A stretch of 64,000 nucleotides of DNA from an uncultured Nitrososphaerota archaeon. Its GTDB lineage: Archaea; Thermoproteota; Nitrososphaeria; Nitrososphaerales; CADDZS01. The DNA is taken from contig CAWCYI010000004.1 of assembly GCA_963799845.1 (NCBI GenBank), positions 1,312,001 through 1,376,000 of the forward strand. Reading direction: 5' to 3'. Positions 36,052 to 63,026 of this stretch are shown here, piece by piece; position 1 is the stretch's first letter, and each line of letters starts with the position of its first letter. A program made the position numbers and the translations under genes. The notes under the pieces were generated by a model. That model had not been told where the DNA came from, did no database searches, and saw nothing but the letters and a program-made list of their open reading frames with translations.

Positions 36052-36107
36052 TAATTTGTAAATTTATGCGGATCCCACATCTCACACTCGGGATTTAATA
36101 GTAAATT
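36052..36107 (+). repeat. Palindromic intergenic repeat family, copy A
   Basis: TAATTTGTAAATTTATGCGGATCCCACATCTCACACTCGGGATTTAATAGTAAATT; shares ATCCCACATCTC..ACTCGGGATT with copy F. Confidence 0.75.
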
Positions 36108-36593: not shown

Positions 36594-36640
36594 GTTATAT
36601 ACATCTTCGAGGATTGCAAGATTTTCAATGCTGCATAATC

Positions 36641-36697
36641 TTGATAGTAAATTGGAGTTATGATCATCACCATCTCAGAACGTTCAGAATAATAGTA
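36641..36697 (+). repeat. Palindromic intergenic repeat family, degenerate copy B
   Basis: TTGATAGTAAATTGGAGTT..ATC..CACCATCTC...AATAGTA. Confidence 0.5.
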
Positions 36698-37401: not shown

Positions 37402-38016
37402 ATGGAGCACCAAAATCAACCAGAATCAGATCCATTCCTGCCTCCGATAGAAAACCCGCCGGGGGTACGGATGAAGATCGCATACTATTTTACGCGACGC
37501 CAATTTGGCAAGGTTATCACTGGAGTCAAGGTTCACTCTGCGAGACTCCCACCCGCATTCGGCCAGTTCTATGCAAAGGTTCCCTCGCTGGACAAGAAAC
37601 TCCAGCTACCTAGGGAGACCGTCATGCTAATCCGCGATCAGGTCTCACGCCTAAACGTCTGCCTCTTTTGCATGGACAGCAACAGGTGGGCAGAGATCAA
37701 AGAGTCGATGAATGAAGCAAAATTCAATTCAATAGAAGAATACAGGACGAGCCCTCTTTTCACTGAAGCGGACCGCGCAGCTCTCGACTATGTCAGCGAA
37801 CTAACGAAGGAAAAGAAGGTAGATCCTAAAACCTTTGCACGGTTGTCCAAGTATTACTCCGACCGAGAGATCTGTGAGATTGTCTGGTTAGTTTCAAGCG
37901 AGCATCTCTACAATATGACCAACATTGGCCTGAACATTCACTCGGACATACTTTGCGACCTCGTCAGGAAAAGGAAGAGTGAGATTGCTTCAACGCAAAG
38001 GAGAAAAAAGAGTTGA
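37402..38016 (+). CDS. Carboxymuconolactone decarboxylase/AhpD-like protein
   Basis: VSRLNVCLFCMD, SPLFTEADRAALDY. Confidence 0.85.
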   Translation: MEHQNQPESDPFLPPIENPPGVRMKIAYYFTRRQFGKVITGVKVHSARLPPAFGQFYAKVPSLDKKLQLPRETVMLIRDQVSRLNVCLFCMDSNRWAEIKESMNEAKFNSIEEYRTSPLFTEADRAALDYVSELTKEKKVDPKTFARLSKYYSDREICEIVWLVSSEHLYNMTNIGLNIHSDILCDLVRKRKSEIASTQRRKKS

Positions 38017-38223
38017 GACTTGGAAGTAGCCACTCGGAAACAGAACGTATGAATATTTGAAAGATATCTGATAATATAGCGATAACCAGAGCAACTCAGG
38101 TGGAATTTTTCTCATTTTCTTCGTGCATTCTCTGGCCGCGCCCAGCAAAAGGACTCTAGGTCTGGGTGTTACTAGTGATTCCTATGACTATCCTTGAAAA
38201 GACAGAATGTAAAATCGAAGGAT

Positions 38224-39264
38224 ATGTATCAACAAAATGAGGTAATCTACATAGGAGCTGACGTTCACTAAAGAGAAACTCAGCTAGCAATCTTTGAACC
38301 AAGAGGCACTCTTCTGCAGGAGGAGAGAATTCTCACAAAGGATCTTCAAAGCTTCATTCAGTCTCTGCCGGCGAAGGAGAAACATCTAGCTCTAGAATCT
38401 GTTGGATTCATCTACCCGTTGTACGATAAGCTCAGACAGATTCCAAGGTGCGAGGTTGCAGTAGCAAATCCGAAGAGGCTGAGACGAGATTCCGGTTCGA
38501 AGCAAAAACATGACAGAATAGATGCAAAACTACTTGGGGATCAAATCAGGACCAACTACCTCAAGAGATCCTACATGCCTGAAGAAGAAACTAGGGAGAA
38601 GAGGTTTCTCATCAACGACAGGGTGAAGTACGGCCTCAGGAGGGCGGAGCTGAGAGGCTCGATACGATGGCTTCTGAAGAGGAGGGGAATCGTCGTTGAT
38701 AGTCCGTTTAGTGCAGAGGGAAGAAGGAAGCTCAAAGAAGAGATTTCCCTCCAGGAGATAGATATCAGATTGCAGGAACTCGAACTCGTGGAATCAATCA
38801 CTGAGAAGCTCGACCCGCAGATTTCTCTGATCGTCGCGCATGATGAAAAGGCAAAACTCATGGACACGTTGCCTGGCGTTGCACCCTACACGGCTCTTTT
38901 TCTTTCATCGGCTCTTGACAACATCGATAGATTCCCCGACTCGAAACATGCGTGCGCCTACTTGGGTCTCGTTCCTTCCCTGCACCAGTCAGGTGATGCA
39001 TCTTTCACAGGTCACATAACGAAGGATGGAAACAAGTTTCTCCGGAGGAATCTGATCGAGTGTGCGAGAGTAGCTGTCAGAAAGGATCCTCGCCTCAAAG
39101 AGTTCTATACCAAGTTAAGGCGTACGAGGGGTGAAAGGAAAGCTTTGATCGCTGTGGCAAGGAAGATGGTTTCGTACGCCTATTGGATGCTGAAGAGGAA
39201 TCGAACCTACGAAGAGCTGAGCTCCTTGGACGAATTTATGGAGACAACAATCATCTCCGTCTAG
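38224..39264 (+). pseudogene. IS110-family DEDD recombinase with in-frame TAA at codon 16 (38269-38271)
   Basis: YIGADVH*RET, ALES, KHDRIDA, LPGVAP, AYLGLVPSLHQSG, ITKDGNKFLRR, ALIAVARK. Confidence 0.88.
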
Positions 39265-39270
39265 TGAATA

Positions 39271-39367
39271 GGGAACGCGTTTCGTAGAGGCGAATTGTAA
39301 GGAAAATGGGGACCTCCCCGAATAGTTGAATGCCAGCCTCTCCAGAAAAAACGCTCGTGCAATTCCC
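39271..39367 (+). ncRNA. Predicted bridge/seek RNA in the 3' non-coding end of the IS
   Basis: Nested stems GGGAA/TTCCC, GCGTTT/AAACGC, AGAGGC/GCCTCT, GGGG/CCCC enclosing a 16+16 nt internal loop. Confidence 0.65.
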
Positions 39368-39434
39368 AGCTAAACTTAGATAGTCATAGTTAAATTCATG
39401 TCAGAGTCCGGTATTGTGTACAAATTTGCTCAGT

Positions 39435-40535
39435 TTAGATATAATTCAAATCATCAGTCATCATCAAGGGAATCCCTAGGTTATCTTCACTGGAACCAAA
39501 GAGCCAGCTGGACATGGCTTCGTAGCTCCCGATGACTTTCTTTCCAAAAGGTCCTTCAGCCAACCATGAGCCTTTCCAGCGAAAAATTCTGGCCTTGCCA
39601 CCAAGATTTTTTTCAAACCAGGAGTGGAGTTCGGAGAAAAGATATTCCACGTTCAGCGGCCGAATCGTTCCCTGCAGCGGCTCCTCTCGAAAGTTCATTT
39701 TAAGATCATCAACATACTTCATCATTTCAACATCGGATGGAAGGACATGCAATTCCACAAACTCTGCTACATAGTGCTCCGAAATTCTTGATAAACTGGA
39801 AACCACAGCTCTGCATGATCCTGCCCACTCGATTATTCTCACGAATCTCGGTTCTGCTATCAAACTATCAATGGATGCAACGACATACCCGACAGTTTTT
39901 CCTTGATGCTTTATTTCGAAAAGCTGGCGATCAGAATACCTGCGGAGATATCCGAGCGTGCGAAGGAAGACCGCCATTTGTGAAATATTTCTTGCGTATC
40001 TGATCGGTTCATTCTCGTGAATTTCTAAAAGCTCCGTCGCATGCGATTCTCTATCTTCTGGCTTTACAAGGATTGTTTGAAAACCGTCCGATGTGACATC
40101 TCCTCTAGTACCGCGTTCGAAAATTGCAACAATCATCCTTCCGACTGAGGAACACCCGATTCTTGTGTAGATGCTCTCGTCTCCAGAAACCAGCAGCAGT
40201 GAGACCGGTTCTTGTTCCAGATCCTTGACAATTTCTCCAATGATTCTCGAAGCTAGTTTTTCACCGCGATGCTCCGGCAGTGTCCAAACATTACCCAGGG
40301 ATGCCACGTGAATTTGCAGCCCATTCAACGAGCAAACGCTCTTGCATACACCAGCCGAGCTTATCGGATTTCCCTTTTCATCCTCGATATAGTAAAGATT
40401 CTTTGAATTATCCGCCGAGTAGAAAAGCGGAAAATCATCGAGCAGTCCCGGTTCATTGCAGGGCCTGAACACCGTGTCTCCGGTCTTTGCAAGGGTTTTC
40501 GAAAGTTCGGGAGTGGCGCGTTTTACTTCGTACAA
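39435..40535 (-). CDS. GNAT-family N-acetyltransferase (Eis-like N-terminal domain)
   Basis: VASLGNVWTLPEHRGEKLAS, LLLVSG..SIYTRIG. Confidence 0.8.
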   Translation of the reverse strand: MYEVKRATPELSKTLAKTGDTVFRPCNEPGLLDDFPLFYSADNSKNLYYIEDEKGNPISSAGVCKSVCSLNGLQIHVASLGNVWTLPEHRGEKLASRIIGEIVKDLEQEPVSLLLVSGDESIYTRIGCSSVGRMIVAIFERGTRGDVTSDGFQTILVKPEDRESHATELLEIHENEPIRYARNISQMAVFLRTLGYLRRYSDRQLFEIKHQGKTVGYVVASIDSLIAEPRFVRIIEWAGSCRAVVSSLSRISEHYVAEFVELHVLPSDVEMMKYVDDLKMNFREEPLQGTIRPLNVEYLFSELHSWFEKNLGGKARIFRWKGSWLAEGPFGKKVIGSYEAMSSWLFGSSEDNLGIPLMMTDDLNYI

Positions 40536-60040: not shown

Positions 60041-60109
60041 TGTATTTTTACTAGTTAATTGGTGCGGAAGTCCCACATTCCGCGTACGAGATTTACTAGT
60101 AAGACCAAA
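60041..60109 (+). repeat. Palindromic repeat family, copy E
   Basis: 59/69 ungapped identity to copy H by manual alignment. Confidence 0.9.
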
Positions 60110-61113: not shown

Positions 61114-61299
61114 GATGTCTGTGCATTACGCGGCTCTTTAAAAAATAAATCCCGTGTAAAGCCCGATTCCGTGAAGAGTCTTCGTTCCGACCCAAGATTC
61201 ACTGCTTTCTTGAAAAGACTGGACTCGAAGCTTAGTAAAGGGGTATCAAAACGCTCGATTGCTCCAAAATGCGAACCTTTGCTCTTTGCCTATTTGCAC

Positions 61300-61360
61300 A
61301 TTTTTACTAGTAAATTGGGGTTCAAATCCCACATCTCGTACTCGGGATTACGGCAAACCA
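61300..61360 (+). repeat. Palindromic intergenic repeat family, copy F
   Basis: ATTTTTACTAGTAAATTGGGGTTCAAATCCCACAT identical (35 nt) to 62961-62995. Confidence 0.9.
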
Positions 61361-62957: not shown

Positions 62958-63026
62958 TGTATTTTTACTAGTAAATTGGGGTTCAAATCCCACATTCCGC
63001 CTATGGGATTTACTAGTAAAACCAAA
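62958..63026 (+). repeat. Palindromic intergenic repeat family, copy H (most intact)
   Basis: TTTTACTAGTAAAT-TGGGGTTCAAAT-CCCA-11 nt-TGGG-ATTTACTAGTAAAA. Confidence 0.9.

Follow-up and report, generated by a model that had tools for sequence, protein, structure and literature searches.

A decayed IS1111-type insertion sequence and its predicted guide RNA at an archaeal palindromic repeat

Insertion sequences (ISs) of the IS110 and IS1111 groups have been found in repetitive extragenic palindromic (REP) sequences and in integron attC repeats (PMC11187229, PMC11208160, PMC12288879), and the natural re-programming of their guides is likewise published (PMC11187229). Among the described systems closest to the one reported here, ISPa11 of the IS1111 family targets the REP sequences of Pseudomonas aeruginosa and its seekRNA has been shown (Siddiquee et al. 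2024, PMC11187229), and IS621 of the IS110 group acts with a bridge RNA (Durrant et al. 2024, PMC11208160; PDB 8wt6). According to the seekRNA paper (PMC11187229) the family is abundant in archaea too and every element characterised there is bacterial; 662 archaeal IS110 recombinases have been counted (10.1101/2024.06.21.599552). We analysed a stretch of 64,000 nucleotides (the window; G000:C4:1312001-1376000) from the 4.6-Mb, 9-contig assembly of an uncultured Nitrososphaerota archaeon, in which the archaeal SSU rRNA model gave a match. In the window, whose gene calls come from reading open reading frames (ORFs) only, a 1215-bp insert separates a 204-aa ORF (37402-38016, + strand), for which a Pfam search returned no match, from a GNAT-domain ORF (39435-40535, - strand). 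We consider this insert, at a probability of about 0.88, to be a decayed archaeal IS1111-type IS that was guided by RNA into a repeat family at TTACTAG^TAAATTC, where ^ marks the insertion point.

The window element resembles ISPa11 in its DEDD transposase, the long non-coding region after tnp, the short left end and the subterminal inverted repeats. Like ISPa11 it has entered an abundant extragenic palindromic repeat in a specific orientation, and in both the guide that is complementary to the top strand comes first, followed by the one with the top-strand sequence. It differs from ISPa11 in its archaeal host, in the unrelated repeat, in terminal extensions of 6 and 1-2 nt, in a predicted target loop that overlaps the 3' end of the ORF (that of ISPa11 is wholly non-coding), and in being known from sequence alone. 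With IS621 it shares a homologous recombinase, REP-type natural targets, two internal loops (a target loop and, apparently, a donor loop) and a short shared core at the crossover. Unlike the window element, however, IS621 carries its RNA in the left end, with the guide order reversed, inverted repeats of 2-3 bp and the core CT, whereas in the window element the predicted RNA lies at the right end, the inverted repeats measure 11 bp and just one base, a T, is shared.

The element's ends and the interrupted repeat

The left junction of the insert reads ...GGGTGTTACTAG(38175)^TGATTCCTATGACTATC... and the right junction ...GATAGTCATAGT(39390)^TAAATTCATGTCAGAGTCC.... Excision of 38176-39390 yields GTGTTACTAGTAAATTCATG, which is GTGTTACTAG joined to TAAATTCATG, and the rebuilt site, GTTACTAG^TAAATTC, corresponds to the left palindrome and the first interior bases of a hairpin repeat of ~60 nt. 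Because a T is present at both 38176 and 39391, the ends are ambiguous by 1 nt, and excision of 38177-39391 yields the identical string. A 12 x 11 grid of alternative boundaries was scored against a profile made from 8 full copies of the repeat; 38176-39390 and its equivalent formed the unique maximum (14.0 bits, with the next cell at 9.3 and most cells at 0-7), and the rebuilt junction restores 14 consecutive bases of the repeat consensus. Homologues fix the same ends independently. Left-end homology begins at T38176 (TGAxTxCTATGACTA) in 7/7 homologues that have this end (L013, L025, L026, L028, L030, L031 and L032) and in a partial copy on contig C6, and right-end homology stops after ...ATAGT, always followed by T, in 10/10 homologues (11 elements when the window copy is included; L033, an internal piece only, was omitted). 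The precise insertion into the palindrome that had been read from the window alone was thus confirmed, and true ends lying elsewhere, which the first-pass annotation had named as a way for this reading to fail, were not found at either junction. The features are collected in Table 1.

Table 1. Features of the window element and of other IS110-family elements in the same assembly
Feature	Position	Strand	Evidence or remark
IS110-family insertion sequence, IS1111 layout, 1215 bp	38176..39390	+	homology limits in homologues and excision grid; equivalent 38177-39391
Left half-site TTACTAG of the interrupted repeat palindrome, left IS flank	38169..38175	+	junction sequence, excision grid; ACTAG flank likewise in L025 and L013
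Left terminal extension TGATTC, outside the inverted repeat	38176..38181	+	
Left subterminal inverted repeat CTATGACTATC	38182..38192	+	conserved in homologues
Transposase (DEDD recombinase) pseudogene, 346 codons, in-frame TAA at 38269-38271 (codon 16)	38224..39264	+	Pfam, IS621 match, homologue codons
Predicted target-binding loop; closing stem CCTT (39224-39227)/AGGG (39270-39273)	39224..39273	+	overlaps last 14 codons and stop; stem paired in 40/40 cells
Predicted right-target guide ACGAATTTA, complementary to top strand TAAATTCGT	39230..39238	+	own flank TAAATTCAT, 8/9
Hairpin GGAGA-loop-TCTCC between the two guides	39240..39258	+	two compensatory pairs, GGAGA/TCTCC vs GAGGA/TCCTC
Predicted left-target guide TCTAGT (39260-39265; flank CTAG plus T), then GAAT resembling the IS left end	39260..39269	+	4-5/6 in 6/6 elements with a known left flank
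Second stem-loop, likely donor loop; stem AGAGGC/GCCTCT, inner hairpin GGGGA-CC-TCCCC	39286..39341	+	alignment, pair counts
Right subterminal inverted repeat GATAGTCATAG	39379..39389	+	
Right half of the interrupted repeat: TAAATTC, then decayed interior and decayed second palindrome	39391..39442	+	
IS-B copies	C6 ~903710-904913; C6 ~961386-962585; C4:1956890-1957753		loci L039, L040, L038
Third IS110-family element, four copies	G000:C4:1233984-1234736; C6:927918-928670; C6:959902-960654; C6:1073031-1073783		

The repeat unit (~60 nt) consists of TTTACTAGTAAA, ~33 nt that commonly read TTCGTGCGGGGGTCCCACATCTCGCACTCGGGA or the variant GGGGTTCAAATCCCAC, and a second TTTACTAGTAAA, and it folds as one long hairpin (-28.4 kcal/mol, z -7.1). 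The 12-nt palindrome TTTACTAGTAAA occurs 40 times in the 4.6-Mb genome, against about 0.3 expected for a 12-mer, and 0-6 times in 60 relatives, many of them fragmented. Within the window the motif TTACTAGTAAATT was found 13 times at <=2 mismatches (0.97 expected), and a genome-wide profile search (nhmmer, E<=1e-3) returned 53 repeat loci, clustered in a few regions. Six window copies were compared with the ORF lists; all lie between ORFs, at convergent and divergent pairs with miscellaneous neighbour genes. Further copies or half-copies at 36072-36107, 36632-36659, 60041-60109, 61295-61350 and 62958-63026 are likewise intergenic and lie among small accessory genes of unrelated kinds (YbjQ, glyoxalase-like, cupin, SDR, RibD_C and ABC-2). 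Judged by its sequence and placement, the repeat is a REP-like extragenic palindromic element. Unlike the targets of the IS1111-attC group it does not look like an integron attC: the genes around it point both ways, and inspection by eye showed no GTTRRRY core in the repeat; no search for an integrase was made. An Rfam search of the repeat gave no family. A transfer-RNA origin, prompted by the GGTTCAAATCC variant, was dropped, as the commoner GTGCGGGGGTCCCAC variant is without that motif.

The transposase ORF contains PF01548 (DEDD_Tnp_IS110; E 4.2e-10, 40.1 bits, cut-off 29) and PF02371 (Transposase_20; E 1e-22) and aligns with the transposases of known structure from IS621 (8wt6, E 7.3e-14) and ISCro4 (E 2e-10). 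It carries the motifs GADVH, ALESVG and DRIDA, and with GLVPSLHQSG at residues 248-257 and 346 codons it agrees with the IS1111 motif GL-P----S(T)G and the IS1111 length of 330-350 aa. IS1111 elements usually have subterminal inverted repeats of 11-13 bp, with extensions of 7 (or 6) nt on the left and 3 nt on the right (PMC11187229). In the window element these repeats are perfect (11/11 bp complementary), the non-coding ends measure 48 nt before the ATG on the left and 126 nt after the stop on the right, and the extensions are 6 nt on the left (TGATTC) and 1 nt plus the shared T on the right. The layout agrees with the IS1111 descriptions in PMC11187229 and PMC11208160. The 11-bp repeats, the longer downstream non-coding region, the GL-P----SG motif, the size and the guide order are all those of IS1111, and on these sequence characters we place the element in the IS110 family with IS1111 features, from which it would depart solely in the length of its terminal extensions. 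The Pfam domains, the IS621 homology, the inverted repeats and the GLVPSLHQSG motif bear out the original label of an IS1111-type element.

The open reading frame is not intact. Codon 16, directly after GADVH, is TAA, at a position where the homologues that retain the N-terminus have a Glu codon (7/8) or Gly (1/8). Contigs of sequencing runs X1 and X2 carry the same TAA with no difference there (X1, X2 and X3 belong to four runs of one study, which were compared as contigs only over 37600-39900). Therefore, the TAA is a real nonsense mutation and not an assembly error. The assembly contains no second full copy and no intact copy, the sole other piece being a left-end fragment on C6. Because of the codon-16 nonsense and the lack of an intact copy in the assembly, the window copy is dead and cannot move by itself.

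Predicted guide loops and their match to the flanks

By the published mechanism of the family, the element would excise as a circle and be re-inserted by its DEDD recombinase, steered by a small RNA from its 3' end. Alignment of the homologues reveals a common architecture in this region. Upstream of a conserved AGGGAA, all elements have CC(C/T)TGG, 9 variable nt and a hairpin (GGAGA..TCTCC or GAGGATAATCCTC), followed by ~6 variable nt, GA(A/G)T and AGGG. The proposed helices are paired in 95.5% of 198 alignment cells, with 3 pairs showing double changes, while slid controls gave 45-65%. In the window element the 9-nt guide would pair with T+AAATTCGT, the top-strand sequence of the right flank, and, past the short hairpin, the second guide would carry the left-flank sequence (CTAG+T).

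The variable segments change together with the flanks. The 9-nt guide is complementary to the element's own right flank in 11/11 elements with a right end, nine of them at 8-9/9 in register. It is the exact reverse complement of that flank (9/9) in L027, L023, L028, L026, L031 and L032, matches at 8/9 in the window element, L025 and L029, and in L034 reaches 9/9 after a 1-nt offset (5/9 in register). When L024, which duplicates L031, is left out, own guide-flank matches average 8.3/9 against 3.2/9 across target groups, and when one representative was taken for each of the 6 targets only the true assignment among 720 permutations reached the observed total. L025 shows a compensatory change: its guide carries ACCAATTTA, and the repeat copy beside it is of the TTGG variant. 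Among the six elements with a known left flank, five have a second guide identical to the final 4 nt of that flank plus T, and L031 has the final 3 nt plus T; over 6 positions this amounts to matches of 5/6 in five elements and of 4/6 in L031.

Both guides together specify CTAG-T-AAATTCGT, and all exact genomic matches to the predicted 13-nt site CTAGTAAATTCGT (13/13) lie in repeat-family sequence, either in the hairpin unit or in a second repeat type that follows the same palindrome. Since the specified string is exact only in repeat-family sequence of this genome, the element would be expected to land in one orientation at TTACTAG^TAAATTC. The top-strand complement lies 5' of the second guide and both guides cover the insertion point, the order and overlap that have been described for IS1111-family seekRNAs (PMC11187229). 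That the RNA is made, is bound by the recombinase, directs strand exchange and acts on a circle intermediate would follow by analogy with the published family mechanism.

The second stem-loop is likely a donor-binding loop. Its near-invariant strand GAATAGTTGAATGCC (39320-39334) includes ATAGTTGA, which equals the abutted element ends CATAGT and TGATT, and this strand probably holds the donor. Other placements of the guides were tried and rejected. The interval 39292-39334 as target loop has a 3' strand that is near-invariant across targets and matches the abutted ends, and its 5' strand tracks no flank; the loop of the 5' leader and the segment preceding the right inverted repeat likewise did not track targets. 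Exact k-mers of at least 6 nt common to the non-coding region and the target were not found in the window copy.

The predicted target loop extends into the coding sequence. Among homologues with 68-81% aa identity a stop codon directly follows the first guide, and in the repeat-targeting clade the ORF continues through the hairpin into the second guide. Term searches of the main texts of the seekRNA and bridge RNA papers, and a literature search, brought up no guide that overlaps the coding end, although the supplements may show cases. We also observed that the window has one extra base at 39219 relative to all close homologues and to the X1 contig, which shifts the frame of the guide-overlapping ORF tail.

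Insertion sites of relatives and alternative explanations

To call the target specific, the flanks of other copies had been proposed as a check, with TTACTAG^TAAATT as the expected empty site. In the close clade (at least 88% aa identity; members from the same-genus genome G004 and from metagenome contigs) the left flanks end in ACTAG in 3/3 known cases, namely the window, L025 (...GGTTTACTAG^) and L013 (...TTTATACTAG^). The right flanks start with TAA(A/T)TT and continue into the repeat in 5/5: the window, L025 (^TAATTTGGTGTTCAAATCCCAAATCCCGCACTCGGGATTT), L027 (^TAAATTCGTGTTCAAATCCCACATTTCGCACTAGGGATT), L023 (^TAAATTCGTGCG) and the X1 contig. All four other close-clade insertions (L025, L027, L023/L013 and the X1 contig) therefore occupy the same position of the repeat in the same orientation. 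The X1 contig, of 99 nt, has a variant right end that runs on into TAAATTC+GTGCGGGGGTCCCACATTCCGCG, and its flank continues into GTGCGGGGGTCCCAC...; run X1 may be the source sample, and its copy differs from the window copy in sequence and flank. The distant homologues (68-81% aa) have other flanks, ATT^TGAACCGTCGT in L026, L031 and L024, GTCTC^TGGGGATTCAC in L028, GTTTAG^TGTGTGTGT in L032, and ^TGGGGCCGGTG and ^TGAATGAATGG on the right of L034 and L029. The repeat position was thus recovered at every known flank of the close clade and is absent from the distant homologues, as well as from the C6 fragment. Elements with 68-88% protein identity occupy six unrelated targets, mostly non-palindromic, and the unrelated flanks of the distant homologues appear, from the guide sequences, to reflect re-programmed guides and not a lack of specificity.

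Two groups of relatives deserve separate mention. The C6 fragment (G000:C6:1741266-1741560) is a 298-bp left end of the window element type, with 81% nt identity and a Glu codon at the position of the TAA; its guide cannot be read because the 3' part is missing. The metagenome loci L031 and L032 are internally deleted, with 1115 and 797 bp between intact ends, and keep the guide region and both ends, so that they are possible non-autonomous derivatives.

A second IS110-family element, IS-B, has the IS1111 layout, is 27-39% aa identical to the window transposase and shows PF01548 and PF02371 in split frames. In 3/3 copies it sits at TTTACTAG^TAAA of other copies of the hairpin repeat, the same position as the window element (IS-A). 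All IS-B copies are broken, one by a frameshift, one by stops and one by 5' truncation (the copy ending at C4:1957753). The 3' region of IS-B reads GGCTC-GAGAATTTACT-GCATC-TTCAGG-GATGC-GTTTACTAGG-GAGCC, and its loop strands GAATTTACT and GTTTACTAG hold the complement of AGTAAATTC and the sequence TTTACTAG. L020, 63% identical to IS-B, has CCTCTCTCT and ATTATAG in the same places, which match its own flanks TATTATAG^AGAGAAGG; in L017 the first loop strand fits only partially and the left flank is missing. The close-clade sites, the guides that co-vary with the flanks and the presence of a second, distant element at the same position support the earlier proposal that the IS is specialised on the repeat. 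In the convergence of diverged transposases on one repeated site, IS-A and IS-B resemble the IS1111-attC group (ISKpn4, ISPst6 and ISPa25; PMC11187229), and the close relatives redirected by guide changes only, here to six targets, resemble ISEc11/ISXne4 (PMC11187229). ISPpu9 and ISPpu10 of Pseudomonas putida (PMC12288879) also have REP-type targets and recombine at an AG common to element and target, as in IS-B; unlike the window element, they are of the IS110 group, are without long subterminal repeats and live in a bacterial host.

Other mobile elements were seen in the same assembly. A group II intron (G000:C4:1954959-1956884; L038:960-2884), with Rfam RF02003 and RF00029 above the gathering score and an ORF containing RVT_1 and GIIM, abuts the 5'-truncated IS-B copy and probably caused its truncation. 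Four copies of ~1.55 kb, 99.5% identical, represent a third IS110-family element, which on that account is probably active. Its flanks contain ...CGAATC and CGGAC-like strings, which resemble the second repeat type (ACGTGTCCGAATCCCGT...), a type that often follows the TTACTAGTAAA palindrome.

Several observations weigh against an RNA-guided insertion into the repeat. The transposase is broken, and the extensions of 6 and 1-2 nt differ from the published 7/3 or 6/3; to obtain 7 + 3, one would have to count the inverted repeat as 10 bp and give the shared T to the right end. The match of the rebuilt site to the repeat profile is limited to profile positions 5-32 (14 bits, E 0.18 genome-wide). 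For the guides, the window right flank departs from its guide at 1/9 positions, the left-guide permutation test is weak (2/24 permutations reach the observed value) and position -5 of the left guide is mismatched in all six elements. Folded as a single sequence, the region does not outperform shuffles (z -0.52); between the left end and the 5' strand of the second loop neither complementarity nor co-variation is clear, and an Rfam search of the guide region gave no family match. The flanks of the 68-81% aa homologues are unrelated to the repeat, and the left flank of the C6 fragment (GGGTCCGAATCTC; ...CGAATCTC^) is non-repeat and not the palindrome. Finally, neither an empty allele nor a joined-ends circle junction was seen in the contigs of the four runs.

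The downstream flank had been said to align loosely with one repeat copy of the window, copy E. In a global alignment it scores 9, against 2.9 +/- 1.5 for shuffles (3/1000 shuffles reach 9), so that a weak resemblance stands, and the same scoring against two other window copies gave nothing. Because the profile match is partial and the alignment with copy E is weak, the host repeat copy is read as decayed. An uninterrupted allele, also proposed as a check, was sought in relatives and in the contigs and was not found. The orthologue of the right-flank gene is present in 2/12 other genomes of the family: in G003 the locus is cut by a contig end, and G004 has a different left neighbour and no repeat. 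In X1, X2 and X3 both the left and the right junction are spanned by contigs, with no joint that skips the element; an empty allele is not thereby shown to be absent, because contigs drop rare variants.

We weighed three other explanations of the association. In the first, the protein would set the site preference, recognizing the palindrome TTTACTAGTAAA or a DNA hairpin, and the guides would be a coincidence in the coding tail. The target is indeed perfectly palindromic and could extrude a hairpin, the same spot is used by two unrelated elements, an IS110 element is reported to read target structure as well (10.64898/2026.03.19.712850), and the guide RNA at this locus has been read only from DNA. 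However, elements 68-88% identical sit in six unrelated targets with a 9-nt segment that changes with the flank every time, and orientation is fixed by the asymmetric AAATTCGT and not by the symmetric palindrome. We therefore regard protein-set preference as improbable. Slightly less credible still is that the repeat is itself a by-product of the IS (solo ends, a footprint or a miniature derivative), in which case the association would say nothing about targeting. Repeat copies do cluster in the same regions as IS110-family elements, and a small element borrowing the ends of an IS110-family IS has been described for ISPpu9 (PMC12288879), but the repeat has no sequence in common with the ends or the inverted repeats of IS-A or IS-B, its 53 loci compare with one full and one partial IS-A and three IS-B copies, and relatives of this IS whose guides differ are inserted outside repeat DNA. 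Chance placement of a low-specificity IS beside a TTACTAG string, which the single full copy in the assembly and the degenerate host repeat might suggest, can be set aside as very improbable given the 14 consecutive consensus bases rebuilt at a junction fixed by homology and four further insertions from other assemblies at the same position. An RNA-guided insertion into the repeat remains our preferred reading; the ends, the rebuilt site, the protein family, the co-variation of guides and flanks and the recurrence of the site are shown by the sequences.

Implications for the repeat and for the archaeal elements

Two features of this system are less ordinary, namely that the predicted target loop falls within the coding end and that two distant lineages converge on a single site. 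We lean towards a joint reading, held with clearly less assurance than the insertion itself, in which the target loop lies in the last recombinase codons, an RNA of ~120 nt carries both loops, and two lineages have independently come to the same phosphodiester of one lineage-specific hairpin repeat. If so, each re-targeting would also rewrite the C-terminal tail of the protein.

The first-pass annotation took the targeting as independent evidence that the repeat is functional. This does not follow, because such elements need only an abundant, conserved site, and abundance and conservation are sufficient for a landing site. Thus, the insertion should not be counted as evidence for a cellular function of the repeat. 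The structure of the locus itself is dated and explained as a dead element in a decayed repeat copy. Across the relatives, one conserved scaffold with six targets and exact guide-flank complementarity of 8-9 nt would define the guide positions of an uncharacterised archaeal clade without experiment. If the joint reading is correct, the repeat would serve RNA-guided elements of archaea as a common safe harbour, and the element with its relatives would form a natural six-target series of re-programming.

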